Source: Acidobacteriota bacterium
GTDB taxonomy: Bacteria > Acidobacteriota > UBA890 > WLXD01
Assembly (NCBI GenBank): GCA_963666055.2
Contig: CAXWPH010000011.1
Coordinates: 160,001 to 224,000, forward strand
Direction of reading: 5' to 3'
DNA: 64,000 nt
Positions 8,839 through 17,100 of the stretch are shown piece after piece; position 1 is the stretch's first letter, and every line of letters starts with the position of its first letter. Both the position numbers and the translations under genes were made by a program. The notes under the pieces were generated by a model, which had not been told where the DNA came from, made no database searches, and saw only the letters and a list, made by a program, of their open reading frames with translations.

Positions 8839-8951
8839 GGTTCAGTCGTGCCTAATTTCGTGTCACGGTGGCCGCTCGGGAGAGATCCTCGAGCGCGACG
8901 ACGACTTCTTCGTCGGCGTCGGAAACTGCATCCGCTGGTAGCGAGGAAGTG

Positions 8952-10877
8952 ATGGACTCCTGGGCCCCCGCCGCAGCTTCGGCGACGAGAAGTCGCCGCC
9001 TGCCCTTGCTGGCAACAGTCGTTCTCGGAGCACTCTTTCTGCTCCCGCTGACCGGACGATCCCACATCATCCGCGAGGAACCCTGGCACCCGGTACCAGC
9101 GGCGTATCTGCGCAGCATGTTCTACCTGAAGCTACAGCCGGTGAACTGGACGCTAGTCGCTGCGGAGTTCGAGGGCGTGCGTGAGAGCGGTTGGCAGCTC
9201 GACTCGGTCTACGACGGCATCGCGCTGGCCACAGAGCTCGAGGGCACCGACCACACGGCAACGATCCGCGCCGCCATCGCGGCCACCGATGCAGAGTCGT
9301 TTTCGGCTTCGGCCACGCGAGCGGTGTCGCAACTCGTGCGGTTACATCTGCGGCGCGCGCTGGCCAATCTCGACGCGCCAGGGGCAGCCCTCGAGGAGGT
9401 GCATCAGGCCAGCCGGATGTTCCGTGCATTCGACCGATTCGTGCGTGCCACCGACTCGCAGGGCGCTCGAGAACTGGGCCGTGCGTGGCTCGAGCTGACC
9501 ACGACGGTGGGCACAGCCGGAATCGGGAATCGCGGCGTGAAGCCGGTCGACAGGGAGCGTTTCGCCAGCGCCGCCGAGACCGTGGAGGCTTACCTCACCG
9601 CCAACTACGAGCGCGACGGCGGGCCGAGCATGACCCACTTCAACCCGGTTCCGGCGATCGGTCGCAACTCGACAGCCGGGGTGGCGCCCTGGTTGCCGCC
9701 GGCCACCGACCTCAACGACCAGGATCCTCTGCCCCGCCTGGTGCTGAACTTCGAGGAGCGCGGCGTCGACGAGAAAGATCTGTTCCTGGTGACCTACGGG
9801 GACATGCTCTTCGATTCGCCGCAGATCTTCGGCGAGCCGGCGCTCAGCCTCGGTCTCTCGTGCTCGCGTTGCCATAACCGTAGCGACATCAACCAACGGT
9901 TCTTCATCCCGGGAATCAGCACGCGTCCCGGCAACGTCGACGTCGACGGACACTACTTCAACCCGCGCTTCAACGATCGCCGCGCCGACGCGCTCGACAT
10001 CCCGAGCTTGCGCGGCCTCCGGTTCACGGCGCCCTATGGCCGCGACGGCCGTTTCGCAAGCCTGCGTAACTTCACCCGGAACGTCGTGGTCAACGAGTTC
10101 GCCGGCGAGGAGCCCTCGCCGTTGATGCTCGATGCTCTGGTCGCCTACATGTTCGAGTTCGATTGGCTGCCGGCGCCCTACCTGCAGCCTGACGGCCGGC
10201 TCAACGACGCCGCTTCCGACTCCGCCCGGCGCGGCGAGGTACTGTTCAATCGCCCGTTCGACGGCATGGGCGGACGCGCTTGCAGTACCTGTCATGTGCC
10301 GAGCAACAACTTCCTCGACGGCCAGCGACACGACATCGGTAGCGGCGAACGGTCGAGCCCGGGCGCTCGGGACACGTTCTTCGACACGCCGACGTTGATC
10401 GGCGTGTTGCACACTGCGCCGTACTTTCACGACGGGTCGGTGGTAACTCTCGCCGAAGTTGTCGATTGGCTCGATGATCAGTTCGACCTCGGCCTCGACG
10501 ACAACCAGCACTCCGACTTGACGATCTACCTCGAGACGGTGGGCGAAGGCACAGACCCGTACGAGGTGTTCGACGAGGACAACACGCTGTTCCAGCTGTT
10601 CTGGGGTGAGCTGTCGACGTTTGCCTCGACCCTGTCGACGCTCATTCCTGCGCGCGACGCCGAGCACGCCGACCTCATGCTGCGCACAGTCGCCGCCGAC
10701 TTGAGACTCGACGCCTCGGCGCTCGAGAATCTGGCACAGGCACCCAAGGTCTTCGAGCTCGCCGACCAGCTCGACGATATCCGTGCGTCAATCGACGCCG
10801 ACGATTGGCGCCGGGCGGCGCAGCTGTGGATCGAATACCAGGCGCTCGAAGCCGCTTACGGACCCGATTTCCGCTGA
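8952..10877 (+). CDS. Exported di-heme cytochrome c, bacterial CcP/MauG superfamily, with extra N- and C-terminal helical domains
   Basis: Signal peptide; CSRCH and CSTCH; IPSLRGLRFTAPYGRDG and TPTLIGVLHTAPYFHDG family motifs. Confidence 0.85.
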   Translation: MDSWAPAAASATRSRRLPLLATVVLGALFLLPLTGRSHIIREEPWHPVPAAYLRSMFYLKLQPVNWTLVAAEFEGVRESGWQLDSVYDGIALATELEGTDHTATIRAAIAATDAESFSASATRAVSQLVRLHLRRALANLDAPGAALEEVHQASRMFRAFDRFVRATDSQGARELGRAWLELTTTVGTAGIGNRGVKPVDRERFASAAETVEAYLTANYERDGGPSMTHFNPVPAIGRNSTAGVAPWLPPATDLNDQDPLPRLVLNFEERGVDEKDLFLVTYGDMLFDSPQIFGEPALSLGLSCSRCHNRSDINQRFFIPGISTRPGNVDVDGHYFNPRFNDRRADALDIPSLRGLRFTAPYGRDGRFASLRNFTRNVVVNEFAGEEPSPLMLDALVAYMFEFDWLPAPYLQPDGRLNDAASDSARRGEVLFNRPFDGMGGRACSTCHVPSNNFLDGQRHDIGSGERSSPGARDTFFDTPTLIGVLHTAPYFHDGSVVTLAEVVDWLDDQFDLGLDDNQHSDLTIYLETVGEGTDPYEVFDEDNTLFQLFWGELSTFASTLSTLIPARDAEHADLMLRTVAADLRLDASALENLAQAPKVFELADQLDDIRASIDADDWRRAAQLWIEYQALEAAYGPDFR

Positions 10878-10905
10878 CCTCGGCCGACACGGCGAGGAGG
10901 ACGAT

Positions 10906-11793
10906 ATGAACCGACGATTCCGGAAAGCCACGGCGATCCTAGCGACCTCACTGGCGTTGTGCGCGGTGCAACCGGCCGGCCAGGCCGCGGCGATACCTCA
11001 GGACAAGCTGACGTTGGCGTTCATTCCACAGGAAAACCCCGAGAAGCTGCTCGACGATATCTCGGTCATTCGCGACTATCTGTCCGAGGAAATGGGAATG
11101 GCGGTCGACGGTTTTGTAACGCTCGACCACGCTGCCGCGGTCGAGGCGCTGCGCAACGGTACCGCCGATATCTCGTTCATGGGTGCCTTGCCCTACGTCC
11201 TGGCGCACCACCACGTCGACGCTCAAGTAGTGCTCGCCGAAATCTATCGCGGCAGCCCGATGTATCGGGCGCGCCTGTTCGTGCGGCGCGACAGCGGCAT
11301 CACTAAACTCGCCGACCTGCGTGGCAAGAGCATTGCCTTCGCCGATCCGATCTCGGAGTCCGGCTATCTGTACCCGCTCGATCTGTTTGCAGACGCTGGC
11401 TTCTTGACGCCTGGCGATGACCCGCAAACATTCTTCAGCTCGGTCTACTTCGCGGGCGGCTACCAGCAGGCCATCCAGGCAGTAGCGAACGGTTACGTAG
11501 ACGCTGCCGGCGCCAGCCAATACGCCGAGCTGCTGCTGACGCCCAAGCAGTTGCTGGAGGTAACTTCGATCGCCGAATCGGATCTGATCCCCTCGCACGC
11601 CGTGATCGCGCGGGGCGATCTCGACCCGATCGTCGTAGCGGCGTTCAAGCGAGCCATGCTGAAGCTCAACGACGACGATTACCGGCACCTGCTGCAGTAC
11701 GTGTACGGCCCCGACGGCTACGTTGAGGTCGACCATGCCGCCTTCGCGGGCGTGGAGGCCCTGGCGCGAGAGTATGGCTATCTGCAGAACTAG
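10906..11793 (+). CDS. PhnD/PtxB-fold ABC substrate-binding protein with atypical binding residues
   Basis: GAGGAGG RBS; signal peptide; LAFIPQE, DLRGKSIAFADPISESGYLYP and FAGGY. Confidence 0.85.
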   Translation: MNRRFRKATAILATSLALCAVQPAGQAAAIPQDKLTLAFIPQENPEKLLDDISVIRDYLSEEMGMAVDGFVTLDHAAAVEALRNGTADISFMGALPYVLAHHHVDAQVVLAEIYRGSPMYRARLFVRRDSGITKLADLRGKSIAFADPISESGYLYPLDLFADAGFLTPGDDPQTFFSSVYFAGGYQQAIQAVANGYVDAAGASQYAELLLTPKQLLEVTSIAESDLIPSHAVIARGDLDPIVVAAFKRAMLKLNDDDYRHLLQYVYGPDGYVEVDHAAFAGVEALAREYGYLQN

Positions 11794-11872
11794 CGTCCTG
11801 TGGTGGCAATCTCGGTGTTGCGATTCGTCGACGATGGGCGAGGCATCGAGCCGTTCCTGAAGGGAGCAATCC

Positions 11873-12664
11873 GTGTCTGAGCCGGTACTCCGCCTGCGCG
11901 ACCTACGCGTTCGCTACGGCTCCAGGCCGCCGGTCCTCGACGTCGGCGCGCTGGAGGTCGCCGCCGGGGAGATCGTTTGTGTCATCGGGTCCAGCGGCGC
12001 CGGCAAGACGACGCTTCTGCGACTGGCCAACGGCTACGTGCGCGCCGAGAGCGGTGAACTCGAGGTCCTCGGTACACCGACTCGCTTCGGGCCCGACAGC
12101 GGCACCGATCGGCGCGACCGGATGCTGCGGCAGCGCGTAGGCTTCGTATTCCAGAGTTTCAACGTTATCGAACGCGCCAGCGTGTTCGACAACGTCCTCT
12201 GGGGTTCGCTCGGCCGCCAACATGGCCTCGGCGCGCTGCTCGGCCGCTTTCCCGAAAGCGACCGACGCCTGGCCATGGAGGCGATTGCCGAGGTCGATCT
12301 GTTGGCGCAGACCACACAGCGTGTGGATACCTTGAGCGGCGGCCAGCAGCAGCGGGTCGGTGTGGCGCGCGTCATCATGCAGCAGCCGGAACTGGTGCTC
12401 GCCGACGAGCCGGTGTCGAGCCTCGATCCGGTGCTCGCCGAGGAGATCGTCGAGTTGCTCGTCGGGGTCGCCCGGCGACACGGCAAGACGTTGATCATGA
12501 GCCTGCACCTGCCAGCGCTGGCGCAGCGTTTCGCCGATCGCGTGGTCGGGCTGCGAGCCGGCGGGGTGGTCTGGGACGGTGCCGCGGTGGCTCTGGACGA
12601 CACCGCCATCGCCTCGATCTACGGATCTGAATCGCCACCGCCGGCGCCGGAGGTCGGACAATGA
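11873..12664 (+). CDS. ABC ATPase, PhnC-like
   Basis: GSSGAGKTT, LSGGQQQRV, LADEPVSSLDP and SLH. Confidence 0.92.
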   Translation: MSEPVLRLRDLRVRYGSRPPVLDVGALEVAAGEIVCVIGSSGAGKTTLLRLANGYVRAESGELEVLGTPTRFGPDSGTDRRDRMLRQRVGFVFQSFNVIERASVFDNVLWGSLGRQHGLGALLGRFPESDRRLAMEAIAEVDLLAQTTQRVDTLSGGQQQRVGVARVIMQQPELVLADEPVSSLDPVLAEEIVELLVGVARRHGKTLIMSLHLPALAQRFADRVVGLRAGGVVWDGAAVALDDTAIASIYGSESPPPAPEVGQ

Positions 12665-13473
12665 GGTCTGATGCCCACACGGCCAGCCCCGCTGCCCCTG
12701 CGCCACCCGAACAGAGTCTGGGCACGACGCTGCGTCGCTCCACCGGGATGATTGCTCTGGCTGTGGTGGTCGCTTGGGCGTGGCACGGTACCGGCTTCGA
12801 GCTCAGCCGCCTGGGCGGCAGCCTCGCGCCACTGATCGAGTTCTTAGACCGCATGACCCCACCGGATCTGTCGGCACTCGAAGTGGCGATGAGATCGACG
12901 GCCGAGACGCTCCAGATCGCCGTGCTCGGGACGTTCTTGGCCGTCGTCCTGTCGATACCGCCGGCGTTGTTGGCGGCGGCGAACCTAACGGCGGCGTGGA
13001 TCCACCAGCCGGTGCGCTGGCTTCTGGCGCTGCTGCGCGGTATTCCACTGCTGTTGCTGGCACTGATGTTCGTTGCTGCGCTTGGCTTGGGACCCGTACC
13101 CGGCGTGCTCGCCGTGGCCGTGCATTCGGTCGGCATGCTGGCCAAGTTCTACGCCGACGCCTTCGAGAGCGCCCGGCCGGGCCCCATCGAAGCGCTCGAC
13201 TCCGCCGGCGCCAACTGGCTCCAGCGCGTACGCTACGGTGTGCTGACGCAGGTAGCGCCCGATCTGGCTCGCGACACGCTGTTCCGCTTCGAGCTGAACC
13301 TACGCGAGTCGCTGGTCTTAGGCCTCGTCGGTGCGGGCGGTATCGGCTTCTACATTCAGCTCTACATCCGTTCCTTCCGCTACACGAGGGTGGCCACCCT
13401 GACGCTGGTGATCCTGGTGATCGTCGTGCTGGTAGAACAGGGCAGCGTCGCGATTCGTCGCCGGCTCAGCTGA
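12661..13473 (+). CDS. ABC permease, PhnE/PtxC-like
   Basis: ETLQIAVLGT, LAKFYADAFE..GPIEAL and RFELNLRES.LGLVGAGGIG; ATGA overlap with the ATPase. Confidence 0.9.
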   Translation: MRSDAHTASPAAPAPPEQSLGTTLRRSTGMIALAVVVAWAWHGTGFELSRLGGSLAPLIEFLDRMTPPDLSALEVAMRSTAETLQIAVLGTFLAVVLSIPPALLAAANLTAAWIHQPVRWLLALLRGIPLLLLALMFVAALGLGPVPGVLAVAVHSVGMLAKFYADAFESARPGPIEALDSAGANWLQRVRYGVLTQVAPDLARDTLFRFELNLRESLVLGLVGAGGIGFYIQLYIRSFRYTRVATLTLVILVIVVLVEQGSVAIRRRLS

Positions 13474-13915: not shown

Positions 13916-14265
13916 CTACGGCTTTTTCTCCAGAACCCGGAGAGTATAGGGTGAGGATTGCCGCGCCGGACGATCCTCGATCCAGTCGAGCACTTCGGCG
14001 CGAAAGCGCACCGGTTCGTCGACGGAATCGAACCGGTCGATATCCTTCACCTGCGAAGACCTGGTTAGAGCCGACCCAACGGATCCGATCCGAGGACCTC
14101 CTCGACGCCAGCGACATCTCCCAGCGCGGAAATCGCCTGCTGTGTCGTCTGCCGGTTGCAGGGCAGGAACAGCATCACTTCAACCGCATGAACTTCGGCG
14201 GCCGCCGCACGGGCGACGCCCAGCGCCACGAAAGCCATTAGCACGACCTTCGTCCAGGGTTTCAT
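13916..14265 (-). pseudogene. Second exported HMA-like protein, frameshifted or internally deleted
   Basis: AAGGAGG RBS and ATG 14265; signal peptide, then AEVHAVEVMLFLPC...ALGDVAGVEEV; TAA at 14065. Another frame continues QVKDIDRFDSVDEPVRFRAEV...YTLRVLEKKP* to 13916. Confidence 0.5.
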
Positions 14266-14420
14266 GATGGCCTCCTTGTCGCTGCAGGTTGGATGTCTGA
14301 GAGCCTCGCTTTCTTCGCCGGGCGCGGAGGAATCCGTCACCGACGCCACAGCCCGATGAAACGAGCCTGGCGTGCTGAGCGGCTGAGCAAGTCGAAACGC
14401 CCGAGCGGCGACGACTTGCG

Positions 14421-15434
14421 TCAGGAACCTCTGGCGAAACGCTGCACCCGCGAGGCGGCGAAATCGGCCACGTAGAGGCGGCCTTCGGAATCGACGTCGA
14501 TGTCGGCGGGCGAGTAGATGCGCCGCGTGCTCCGGTACCAACGCTCGGCGGCACGGGACACGAGAAAGACCTGTCCGGACGGGTCTAGGCCCTGGACTCG
14601 AAAGTTGGCGCTATCGGCGACGAACAGATTGCCCTCCGCGTCGGTGGCGAGGCCTACGGGGACTTCCCACTCGCCGGCCTCCGCGCCCTTGCGTCCCCAA
14701 CCCTCGCGGAGGGTGCGGTCGGACTCGAACACGAGGATCTCGTAGGCGTGGGTATTACTGACATAGAGCGTGTCGTCCGGCCCGACGGCAGCGTCGCTGG
14801 GGAAGACGAACAGGTCGTGGGGATCGCCCGGTGTGGCCATCATCGACATCTTCGTCTCCTCCATCCCGCGGACCGGCGGGCGGTTCTGAGCGTAGCGGCG
14901 CGCGGAGTCACCGCCGTCGATAAAGCGTATGAAGTTGCCTTCGGAGTCGAGCTCCTGGACACGCTGGCCCATGAACTCCACGACGATGACATTGCCCGTC
15001 GGCGTGACCGCCACGCCGCTGGGAGCCTGGAACTGACCGGCACCCGTTCCGCGCCCTCCCCATACCTCGAGCAGCTTGCCATCGCGGTCGAGCAGCAGCA
15101 GCCGATCGCCGGTGTAGTCGGTCACCAAGATCGTCCCGTCGAGCCGTTCCGCCAAGCCGACCGGCCGCGTTCCCTCGGGCAACGCCCATTGGTCGATCGG
15201 CGTGCCGTCGGCGTCGTAAACGACGATCCGCGAGGCACCGTCGGCGACCATTACCCGCCCAGACATGCTGACAGCAATGCCCATGGGATGATCGAGGGAG
15301 CTGCCCTCGGGGCCAGCTTCTGTCCACTCGGCCTCGAGCTCGAGCGTGCCGACGAGCACCTGACCGAGCGTGCCGACCGCGCCGGTCAGAACCCCGGCGA
15401 CGATCACCAAGCGCACCCAGCGCCAGCGCCTCAT
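14421..15434 (-). CDS. Exported NHL-repeat (beta-propeller) protein with a Met-rich insertion
   Basis: Repeats HPMGIAV, RPVGLAE, GQFQAPSGVAV, FPSDAAV, VPVGLAT and SPADIDV; insert GMEETKMSMMATPGDPHD; ATGA overlap with the upstream gene. Confidence 0.85.
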   Translation of the reverse strand: MRRWRWVRLVIVAGVLTGAVGTLGQVLVGTLELEAEWTEAGPEGSSLDHPMGIAVSMSGRVMVADGASRIVVYDADGTPIDQWALPEGTRPVGLAERLDGTILVTDYTGDRLLLLDRDGKLLEVWGGRGTGAGQFQAPSGVAVTPTGNVIVVEFMGQRVQELDSEGNFIRFIDGGDSARRYAQNRPPVRGMEETKMSMMATPGDPHDLFVFPSDAAVGPDDTLYVSNTHAYEILVFESDRTLREGWGRKGAEAGEWEVPVGLATDAEGNLFVADSANFRVQGLDPSGQVFLVSRAAERWYRSTRRIYSPADIDVDSEGRLYVADFAASRVQRFARGS

Positions 15435-15988
15435 TCGTCGCTGACGCTCCCTTGTACCTGCACGGTGACAGGGGCCTTATCATCGGCTCGAGTGGCTCGA
15501 CCGTAGAGCGTCATCGACCCGGGCGGTGCAACCCTGAACGCGGCGAGAGCCTCCCTGCCTCGCTCGTCGCCGGCGACGAGCAGAAACCGCTGCCCACTGC
15601 TCTCGCTCACTAACCAGGCTGCCGTCTCGTTCGTGGCAATCGCCGGCAGGTCATTGGTGTCGGCGATTCCCCGCAGCCAAACCGTCACCCCAGTCGGCGT
15701 GAAATCGACCTTGGACACACCCGCTTCGAGCGCGGCGGGATCGAACATCGCGTCGGGCGTGAACGTCACGGTGATCAACCCTCGCTCCAGATCTTCCTTC
15801 GTGTCGGCAACGCCTTCCAGGCGTTGTAGGGATCGATTGATCCCGTAGGCTCAGAGCCCTCACGTCATCCCGTCGACACCGACCTCCGCCTTGATGACCT
15901 GGGCGGTAACGGGCGCGGCGACGAGCATCGCGAAGAACAGCCCGACGCCGACGGTGATCAAACGCCGACTTTCGGTTTGGTGGCTCAT
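15431..15988 (-). CDS. Exported HMA-domain selenoprotein with UxxU motif (GMT-U43-GL-U46), 185 aa
   Basis: AGGAGG RBS, ATG 15988 and signal peptide. VGVDGMT-TGA(15862-15860)-GGG-CTC-TGA(15853-15851)-AYGINRSLQRLEGVADTKEDLERGLITVTF continues in frame into ORF 15431..15778. Confidence 0.85.
15808..15844 (-). promoter_or_regulatory. Two tandem SECIS-like hairpins
   Basis: GGGATC-AATC-GATCCC (15844-15829) and CAACGCCT-GGA-AGGCGTTG (15826-15808), directly 3' of the two UGA codons. Confidence 0.6.
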
Positions 15989-16020
15989 GTCGACCCTCCT
16001 CGAGTCGAGGCGTCCATCTT

Positions 16021-16962
16021 TCACGGGACGATGATGTAGCGTAGGCCGAATAGCACGTTGATACTCGGCGCCAGCTGCGTGCCGTTGAGGTAACGAACCG
16101 CGGGGAGCTGCACACCGGCCTCGACGACGAAGTTGGGCCGCAGCAGGTACTGGATTCCGGGGGAAAGATACAGGAGGTTTCCGCCTGAACTGTCGACTTC
16201 CTGGTCGCCGGCGCGCGAGTGTCCCTGCCAACGGCCGTTGAGCTCCAGTAGCAAGAAGACGTCGCGGGAGCGCAATGACGAGATCCGTGTCTTGACCATA
16301 GCATCGTAGCGGAACCGGTCGCCAAGCTCGAAATCGTTGGCCTCCGTGCTTCGCGAGACGCCGACACTGGCAGTGAAGAACCAGCGGGCGGAAGGGGTCA
16401 CATAGCTTGCGATGAAGTCGGCGGTCGGGTCCCAGGATCCAGTCCCACGTTGGAGCGGCGGCGACAACAACTGCCCGTTCGATGAGTCGCGCGCGTCGCC
16501 GCGACCGGTCGGGGTCTTGACACCGCCCTGAAACGACAGCTGGACTCCTCCTCTGCCGCGATCCCGCTTCAGGAAGCGCCACTTGACCAGCAGGGTCGCA
16601 TCGCCGAAGCCCAGGCCGGCTCCAAGACGCTCTGTGCCCGCCGGGCCGTCGATTCGCATCTCCTTGTCGAGTACCGGGAATACGCCGATCAAGCTGACCT
16701 TGCGGTGCAACCCGTACACCACGGCCATCGATACCACGCTTGCTTTGAACCTACGCCCCAGAGGGTTGGGGACCTGCGCGCTGCCGCTCAGCGTGTCGTT
16801 GGCCTGCAGGAAGCTCGCCACGGTGCGGATGCCGAATCCGGAGATGAACTCCGCTCGCGCCCCCGGCGCGAAGATCTGGGCGCTCGACTCCCCGGGCCAA
16901 CCAAGAGTCAACGCCAGCACCGCGTACAGTGCCGGTCGCGATATGGTCGCTTTGCTGTTCAT
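16021..16962 (-). CDS. Outer-membrane beta-barrel 'transporter' family protein
   Basis: Signal peptide ending SSA-Q; GFGDATLLVKWRF, GVKTPTG, LQRGTGSWD and LYLSPGIQY. Confidence 0.8.
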   Translation of the reverse strand: MNSKATISRPALYAVLALTLGWPGESSAQIFAPGARAEFISGFGIRTVASFLQANDTLSGSAQVPNPLGRRFKASVVSMAVVYGLHRKVSLIGVFPVLDKEMRIDGPAGTERLGAGLGFGDATLLVKWRFLKRDRGRGGVQLSFQGGVKTPTGRGDARDSSNGQLLSPPLQRGTGSWDPTADFIASYVTPSARWFFTASVGVSRSTEANDFELGDRFRYDAMVKTRISSLRSRDVFLLLELNGRWQGHSRAGDQEVDSSGGNLLYLSPGIQYLLRPNFVVEAGVQLPAVRYLNGTQLAPSINVLFGLRYIIVP

Positions 16963-17100
16963 GCTGCTTCGTCGCTTTCCGCCGCGGCGCGGTCGCCGAA
17001 CGGCCCCTCTCGTCCGATCGCATCCAGAATCGGGCACTCGCCCACGGGCCCCTCTCCCTCGCACTGTCGCGCAATCGCATCAGCGCACACCGCATTTGAC
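16959..17100 (-). pseudogene. C-terminal remnant of a metal-sensing MerR-family regulator (CueR/ZntR/MerR type)
   Basis: QMRCALMRLRDS [1-nt shift] CEGEGPVGECPILDAIG...EAA*; its TGA overlaps the ATG of the barrel gene; no intact HTH seen upstream. Confidence 0.7.

Follow-up and report, generated by a model that had tools for sequence, protein, structure and literature searches.

Two conserved hairpins behind two UGA codons three codons apart: a candidate tandem selenocysteine-insertion signal in an HMA-domain selenoprotein gene of Acidobacteriota

The window analysed here is a stretch of 64,000 nucleotides from an Acidobacteriota bacterium (GenBank assembly GCA_963666055.2, contig CAXWPH010000011.1, positions 160,001 to 224,000); positions given below are those of the window. 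On its reverse strand lies a gene for a predicted exported HMA-domain selenoprotein (15431..15988, −), in which the codons for both metal-binding cysteines are UGA, three codons apart, and are followed within the coding sequence by two hairpins. A bacterial selenocysteine insertion sequence (SECIS) must lie at a set distance from its UGA, so that the reading of two UGAs nine bases apart is puzzling. Both hairpins are held at the RNA level, and we put at roughly 0.55 the probability that they form a tandem selenocysteine (Sec) insertion signal, with hairpin 1 (H1) serving the first UGA (UGA1) and hairpin 2 (H2) the second (UGA2).

The open reading frame runs from an ATG at 15988 to a TGA stop at 15433-15431 (−), given read-through of the two in-frame TGAs, and comprises 185 codons plus the stop. 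Translated with TGA as U (Sec), the 185-residue product consists of a signal-peptide-like N-terminus, an HMA domain and a further, C-terminal domain. UGA1 (15860..15862, −) and UGA2 (15851..15853, −) take the first and second Cys positions of the HMA CxxC motif and are predicted to encode Sec43 and Sec46, respectively; the GMTCxxC motif here reads GMT-UGA-GL-UGA (GMT-U-GL-U). The read-through product matches the Pfam HMA domain (PF00403) with 38 bits against a cut-off of 24.8, over residues 38-93, spanning both UGAs. An AlphaFold model built from a 26-row family alignment has a mean pLDDT of 92.4 and a pTM of 0.85; its first ~70 residues superpose on the metal-binding domains of CopZ, MerP and ATP7B (TM-scores to the target 0.8-0.89), while the second domain gave no clear structural match. 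Both UGAs are TGA in 25/25 distinct sequences of the clade to which the window belongs (clade A) and are invariant across 39 distinct sequences of the form UxxU. This is thus a genuine HMA-domain gene, conserved among relatives, in which in-frame UGAs stand in place of both codons for the metal-binding cysteines.

H1 (GGGAUC-AAUC-GAUCCC; 15829..15844, −) has a stem of six base pairs, formed by GGGAUC (15844-15839) and GAUCCC (15834-15829), and a four-nucleotide loop, AAUC (15838-15835). Counted from UGA1 and UGA2, respectively, the distance is 21 and 12 nt to the start of the loop and 15 and 6 nt to the base of the stem. H2 (CAACGCC-U-GGA-A-GGCGUUG; 15808..15826, −) pairs CAACGCCU (15826-15819) with AGGCGUUG (15815-15808) around GGA (15818-15816), giving 7-8 base pairs and a loop of 3-5 nt, of the form N-G-G/U-N-N, at a distance of 31-32 nt from UGA2 and 40-41 nt from UGA1. 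Only two bases separate the hairpins, which is about the closest packing possible for two separate elements. A third, small hairpin (GGGCU-CUG-AGCCU; 15847..15859, −) contains UGA2 itself. These elements had been described from the letters of the sequence in an earlier note, which gave H1 with its loop 21 nt after UGA1, H2 with its GGA loop 32 nt after UGA2, and the palindrome GGCUC-U-GAGCC at UGA2; all three are present where it placed them, and RNAfold, one of the checks it had proposed, returns exactly these hairpins. The minimum free energy fold of 15865-15790 consists of H1, H2 and the UGA2 palindrome, at −30.1 kcal/mol (z = −3.25), and one of 200 shuffled sequences folds to an energy as low. 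The small hairpin is specific to the clade: 94.7% of its cells are paired, one pair is lost in 5/19 clade members, and it is absent from the other UxxU clades. It is probably incidental. The core motif of H2 alone has 351 matches in this GC-rich genome and is therefore not specific by itself.

Within clade A the constraint on the hairpins is apparent at the level of synonymous codons. In a codon alignment of the clade (25 distinct sequences, after removal of four duplicate loci), the codons are near-invariant from the one after UGA2 to the GUU that closes H2. The mean pairwise synonymous difference at codons for conserved amino acids is 0.07 for the 12 in the hairpin region, compared with 0.42 for the 39 elsewhere (Mann-Whitney p = 1.1e-5). 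The fixed codons include CGA and CUA in H1 (25/25 each), GGG (25/25) and, in H2, GUU (24/25); in the long open reading frames of the genome CGA makes up 9.5% of Arg codons, CUA 3.7% of Leu, GGG 19% of Gly and GUU 8.9% of Val. Variation is confined to the two central bases of the H1 loop, the final base of the H2 loop, and stem sites at which a wobble pair is kept (A-U to G-U, C-G to U-G). Pairing was counted on 19 distinct clade sequences. H1 is paired in 100% of cells, all its stem changes being wobble-compatible. The seven core pairs of H2 (columns 43-49 with 55-61) are broken in a single cell, which belongs to the aberrant sequence L050; the pair that closes the loop, the eighth (columns 50-54), is open in 9/19, and the eight-pair helix as a whole is paired in 93.4% of cells. 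No double compensatory change occurs within clade A alone, and covariation emerges only when other clades are added.

A view from metagenomes agrees with the codon alignment. Logan contigs from four sequencing runs of three studies, which may include the source sample of the genome itself, were aligned to 15700-16000. Contigs of many relatives stack on 15799-15864 only, where the summed depth rises from 2-9 to about 900; this roughly hundredfold rise arises because the contigs of many related strains match only there. The variable sites within the hairpins are limited to 15841, 15837, 15836, 15824 and 15815, which are loop and wobble sites as in the clade, and both TGAs are constant. The sequencing runs with matching contigs include no run listed as RNA. 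Metagenome assemblies were also seen to break at 15807-15830.

Orthologs with both TGAs are present in three relatives of the same taxonomic family, at 83%, 64% and 45% identity; genome searches at order and class level, both of which covered the same 26 genomes, yielded no more. A metagenome scan used as query the protein part after the second UGA, and is therefore free of bias on the codons at the Sec sites; it gave 23 loci, and all 27 loci then collected read U-G-L-U. A wider search, through 401 Acidobacteriota genomes and a further 119 from another class, added distant UxxU forms, namely clade B (GMT-U-PL-U-AYGAEKALRRLEGV), clade E (KGAT-U-AT-U-GYSLVKGLKRQAGV) and four further sequences, all of which have two hairpins at the same positions. 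Both stems are present in 39/39 distinct UxxU sequences, from at least four Acidobacteriota clades, with compensatory changes between them, which bears out the earlier note's description of these coding-sequence hairpins as SECIS-like.

The stems are kept while their sequences change. H1 reads GGGGCC-GAGAA-GGCCCU in clade B, AGCCUC-GUCAA-GGGGCU in clade E and GGUGUU-GAGC-AACACC in sequence L156. In the 18 distinct sequences of clades B and E it is 96.3% paired, with a swap between GC and CG at two pairs (9 or 10 against 8). H2, counted in 35 distinct UxxU sequences, is 95.9% paired; its pair 38-54 is AU in 26, GC in 7 and GU in 2, and pair 37-55 is CG in 23, GC in 2, AU in 1 and unpaired in 9. 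The covariation score of H2 is 0.206, compared with 0.129 for shuffles and matched by none of 500, a significance that the shuffle control overstates since the UxxU sequences are related. Sliding the partners of H2 by 1-3 columns lowers pairing to 25-54%.

Hairpins were then counted across Sec and Cys forms, in 98 matches to the family motif that represent 80 distinct segments of 66 nt; bases 14-38 and 33-57 from the first Cys/Sec codon were folded as segments one and two. The 35 UxxU sequences have mean energies of −9.9 and −11.1 kcal/mol for the first and second segment, with values of −6 or lower in 33/35 and 35/35, respectively. For the five UxxC sequences the means are −7.5 and −0.8 kcal/mol (4/5 and 0/5 at −6 or lower), and for the 40 CxxC sequences, a set that also contains generic HMA domains from other proteins, along with three motif matches due to chance, they are −4.2 and −4.7 (10/40 and 13/40). 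A search with the family alignment in the same 401-genome sample gave 63 places, which on reading comprise 20 true UxxU forms, 12 UxxC forms, three misread rows and otherwise CxxC forms. The three misread rows bear TGA and were rejected as Sec forms, since they are CopZ-like CxxC genes whose reading had continued beyond the stop codon. Each of the 12 UxxC relatives has a single hairpin, in the place of H1, and none at the place of H2; the four UxxU forms added by this search have both hairpins, and in the seven added UxxC forms the single hairpin is CACGC-CGUGN-GCGUG, whose loop begins 17 nt past the UGA. The comparison of TGA-bearing with Cys-bearing orthologs, one of the checks named in the earlier note, thus gives no conserved hairpin in Cys relatives, one in UxxC relatives, and both together in UxxU members only; neither of the outcomes that the note had named as refuting was seen. 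Four other loci carry a TGA inside weaker HMA matches, none with U at a Cys position.

Close Cys-form orthologs were absent from the 12 hits in a collection of 5.8 billion proteins, which are C-terminal fragments of 104-112 amino acids, one fragment of 113 and one fusion to a MerR domain; the Cys comparison therefore draws on relatives that share 23-29% identity within the family alignment. Gene callers shorten the selenoprotein to a 112-residue fragment, and as protein collections hold only fragments, the family is not annotated as a selenoprotein. In a tree, clades A, B and E are each monophyletic (support 100/99, 88/85 and 100/100, respectively), and the UxxC clade stands separately, together with a single Cys form (100/98). 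A single origin of the UxxU forms is suggested by the H2 core that they share (ACGCC-N-G-G/U-N-N-GGCGU).

The host genome provides a yardstick for the distances involved. A scan for in-frame TGAs with coding-like flanks gave 33 candidates, and in nine besides the present gene a Pfam domain spans the TGA: one formate dehydrogenase alpha subunit, five AhpC/Redoxin proteins and three DUF3179 proteins. The thresholds were relaxed, as stricter ones miss the UxxU gene, because its hairpins use rare codons. Seven of the nine single-Sec genes have one GC-rich hairpin, whose loop starts 15, 16, 19, 20, 21, 23 or 24 nt after the UGA (loops GGUCU, AGUUC, GUC, CGUGC, GGU, CGGGU and CGGGU). Visual inspection of the two remaining DUF3179 paralogs showed a hairpin (GGCGU-CGUGU-ACGCY) whose loop is 20 nt from the UGA. 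The dinucleotide GU is present in all nine of these SECIS-like loops.

The model of the bacterial SECIS (bSECIS), as set out in PMC13188914, asks for a loop of 3-9 nt, a stem of 4-16 base pairs, a G in the first two loop positions and 16-37 nt between UGA and loop; according to the same text, most loops are N-G-[G/U]-N-N with the outer bases paired. The two hairpins resemble the elements of the E. coli fdhF type and the consensus model of Zhang and Gladyshev (summarised in PMC13188914) in being coding-sequence stem-loops that follow a Sec UGA on its 3' side and bear a small apical loop, and differ from them in that two hairpins stand 2 nt apart behind two UGAs 9 nt apart. H1 and H2 both fall within the loop and upper-stem limits, and stand directly downstream of in-frame UGAs in a genome that has selA, selB, selC and selD. 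H2 fits the whole model in 39/39 UxxU sequences: a G is always within its first two loop positions (UGGAA, UGGAU, UGGAC, AGGCU, AGGGU, AGGAU, AGUCU), at 31-32 nt from UGA2. The shape of H1 agrees with the model, and so does its position, 20-21 nt from UGA1. The presence of a G in its loop depends on the clade, with 1/17 in clade A, 10/10 in clade B, 5/8 in clade E and 4/4 in the further sequences. The earlier note had considered H1 the weaker candidate on account of a missing loop G; the absence applies to this clade and does not extend to the others, in which a G is found in 19/22.

Distance favours the assignment of each hairpin to its own UGA. The pairings of H1 with UGA1 (21 nt) and of H2 with UGA2 (31-32 nt) lie within 16-37 nt, and the crossed pairings (12 nt for H1 and UGA2, 40-41 nt for H2 and UGA1) lie outside; one hairpin per UGA is favoured because the loop of H1 is too near UGA2, and that of H2 too far from UGA1, for the known range. 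The 21 nt of H1 also fall within the 15-24 nt of the genome's own single-Sec genes. H1 is assigned to UGA1 because UxxC relatives serve the UGA at the first position with a hairpin at the same place, and H2 to UGA2 because it appears only together with a second UGA. The start of H2 two bases after H1 likewise favours a tandem arrangement, this being about as close as the two could be packed. In such a signal, SelB carrying Sec-tRNA would bind H1 and UGA1 would be decoded; since the H1 loop is nearer to UGA2 than any SECIS in the genome is to its UGA, a second SelB complex, on H2, would then be used for UGA2. The base of H1 lies 6 nt after UGA2, which equals the shortest distance from UGA to stem among the SECIS hairpins of the genome (the DUF3179 gene C15:716084), so H1 could stay folded at the ribosome entrance and keep H2 near. 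Two pre-loaded signals would avoid the need to re-load one SECIS within three codons.

A more specific form of this proposal is that of a dedicated two-hairpin signal with two pre-loaded SelB molecules, in which H1 acts as the SECIS of UGA1 and then as a folded spacer that docks H2 for UGA2, an arrangement that would hold generally among UxxU genes in which the first UGA arrived together with a SECIS of its own. We advance it tentatively, as a possibility that falls short of an even chance; if true, it would explain why H2 is packed two bases behind H1.

Several points weigh against one hairpin per UGA. The H1 loop of this clade is A-N-N-C, without the G of the bSECIS model, and lacks the GU found in all nine single-Sec loops of the genome, as does the H2 loop of the window; because its sequence varies between clades, the H1 loop looks less constrained than that of H2. 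The 31-32 nt between UGA2 and the H2 loop exceed the 15-24 nt of the genome, though they are inside 16-37 nt. The compensatory changes are few clade-level events and not many independent ones. No CxxU member, which could show what UGA2 requires of its own, was found in the 401 + 119 genomes searched. The tree leaves undecided the order among clades A, B and E and their relation to the Cys group, and the route from one hairpin to two does not follow from it. Finally, a 2026 study of UxxU hydrogenases predicts a single SECIS-like stem-loop that possibly decodes both UGAs, perhaps with the participation of extra factors (PMC13582414).

This last proposal leads to the strongest alternative, in which H2 alone binds SelB and serves both UGAs, and the part of H1 is structural, its stem being important and its loop not. 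H1 might then be a folded spacer that shortens the path to H2 from UGA1 (and, while folded, from UGA2), or a roadblock that slows the ribosome between the UGAs and lets a fresh SelB-GTP-Sec-tRNA load on H2. Such a role would account for the different behaviour of the loops, that of H2 keeping G-G/U in 39/39 and that of H1 varying (ANNC, GAGAA, GUCAA, CAUCAAA, GAGC) and lacking G in 16/17 clade A sequences, with a stem that is still fully paired in the clade; and it has its counterpart in the single SECIS that the hydrogenase study proposes for both UGAs (PMC13582414). The H2 loop, however, is placed outside the model with respect to UGA1, and far outside the range of the genome, and UxxC relatives decode the UGA at the first position with a hairpin at the place of H1 and none at that of H2. 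We consider it unlikely that H2 acts alone.

The converse, that H1 is the SECIS of both UGAs (at 21 and 12 nt) and H2 serves to protect the mRNA, to slow translation for folding or export, or to hinder release factor 2, is improbable to a much greater degree. H1 does sit where single-Sec relatives and the other selenoprotein genes of the genome have their SECIS, and one native SECIS shares its 6-nt spacing from UGA to stem base; but it is H2 that fits the SECIS model best and is the most conserved hairpin (39/39), it occurs only with a second UGA (0/5 and 0/7 UxxC forms carry it), and a loop 12 nt after its UGA would be closer than any in the genome. Weakest of all, and scarcely credible, is that the hairpins are a by-product of the conserved peptide (AYGINRSLQRLEGV) or of codon bias without function in the RNA, or that the UGAs are errors, marks of a pseudogene or codons read as Cys or Trp: the peptide is indeed strongly conserved within the clade and the H2 core is not rare in the genome, but synonymous positions are fixed for rare codons, the peptide differs in other clades while compensatory changes preserve both stems, neither TGA varies in 39 distinct sequences or in the metagenome contigs, and both tRNA-Sec are canonical, ARAGORN having shown no Cys-type look-alike.

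The assignment of one hairpin to each UGA can be set beside other systems with neighbouring Sec codons. UxxU selenoproteins have been catalogued, including the HMA-type family NF041115 and a Prx-like family (table of PMC13188914; PMC2398784). The hydrogenases resemble the present gene in having bacterial UGAs three codons apart and differ in the single stem-loop seen there, compared with two conserved ones here; the study describes the decoding of both UGAs as open and reports that the UxxU hydrogenase genomes are enriched in tRNA-ReC (PMC13582414), whereas no Cys-type look-alike of selC was found by ARAGORN over the whole genome examined here. No description of tandem bacterial SECIS hairpins was found in the literature on UxxU motifs, on HMA selenoproteins, on two UGA codons with a bacterial SECIS or on two SECIS elements in bacteria, supplements apart, and the accessible portion of the 2007 paper on the Olavius symbiont contains no discussion of them. 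The two hairpins together would represent a novel form of bacterial SECIS. The protein family forms a natural series, in which Cys forms have no hairpin, UxxC forms one and UxxU forms two, both under selection, and this series gives clear constructs for reporter, SelB-binding and structural tests. Knowledge of the signal could help to find other multi-Sec genes and to design recombinant proteins with two neighbouring selenocysteines.

The protein itself is a new member of the HMA selenoproteins, and its relatives make up a predicted family of exported two-Sec metal-binding proteins in marine-sediment Acidobacteriota. It shares with the closest curated family, NF041115 (UxxU_metal_bind, tabulated as 'putative mercuric reductase', UxxU, 2 Sec; PMC13188914) an HMA-type fold in which both metal-binding cysteines are Sec. 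The NF041115 profile has 74 positions, compared with the 185 residues of the selenoprotein with its signal peptide and second domain, and its cut-off of 95 bits is not reached by the selenoprotein (35.5 bits), whose match to generic CopZ is no weaker (36.4 bits). The MerP model TIGR02052 is likewise below cut-off (30.5 against 92.55 bits), as are the CopZ models, though the fold of MerP and CopZ is matched by the model of the HMA domain. The UxxC members of the family in Acidobacteriota (FGMD-U-xx-C-AH) have the same order of signal peptide, HMA domain and C-terminal domain, with one UGA and one hairpin, its loop 17-20 nt after the UGA.

The genome (5.7 Mb; 95.7% complete by the tool's figure) contains the machinery for selenocysteine. 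SelB has 641 residues and the usual domains, with no additional one; selA (533.6 bits) and selD (326.6 bits) score above their cut-offs; and there are two near-identical, canonical tRNA-Sec genes with G73 and a long variable arm. The latter, at C6:7932-8029 and C13:66090-66187, are one acceptor-stem base apart and have identical 3' flanks and differing 5' flanks; they could be a duplication or an assembly repeat. ARAGORN also called a tRNA with a CUA anticodon (labelled tRNA-Pyl) at C5:65608-65685 (−), possibly an amber suppressor or an odd tRNA, and a further unassigned tRNA-like element at C15:587303-587389. The three DUF3179 paralogs (C15:716084, C15:1843609 and C15:1117112), which belong to a listed selenoprotein family, have the in-frame TGA within the Pfam domain (YUALC, WUPLT and WUPID, respectively) and a hairpin behind it. 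Another in-frame TGA, at C15:1427345 (+), stands in a repeat reading T-R-D-G-G-E-T-*, at what we take to be the Trp place of a BNR-type repeat; it may reflect a broken gene, a sequencing error or a read-through site.

Downstream of the selenoprotein gene lies a gene for an NHL-repeat beta-propeller protein (14421..15434, −; Pfam NHL 1.2e-24), whose start overlaps the selenoprotein stop (ATGA) and which adjoins the selenoprotein gene in clade A and clade B relatives too. Upstream is a gene for an outer-membrane-barrel-like protein of PF13557 (Phenol_MetA_deg; 16021..17064, −; Pfam 1.7e-11). A gene of this family adjoins the clade A relatives and one Cys-form relative, which also stands beside a MerR regulator. 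The MerR fusion among the protein hits (P0012; 177 amino acids), encoded on a different contig of 589 kb, consists of a MerR-type helix-turn-helix N-terminus fused to the family's sequence downstream of the Sec motif, and hints at a merR gene beside the family elsewhere. Downstream of the NHL gene, a small open reading frame (14065-14268, −) begins like a signal peptide, continues with a beta-alpha pattern (MKPWTKVV...VEVMLFLPCNRQTTQQAISALGDVAGVEEV) and has no Pfam match. Ordinary neighbours follow on the 3' side of the selenoprotein cluster, namely a di-haem cytochrome c peroxidase/RoxA-like gene (8868-10877, +) and a phosphonate-type ABC transporter operon (10783-13473, +).

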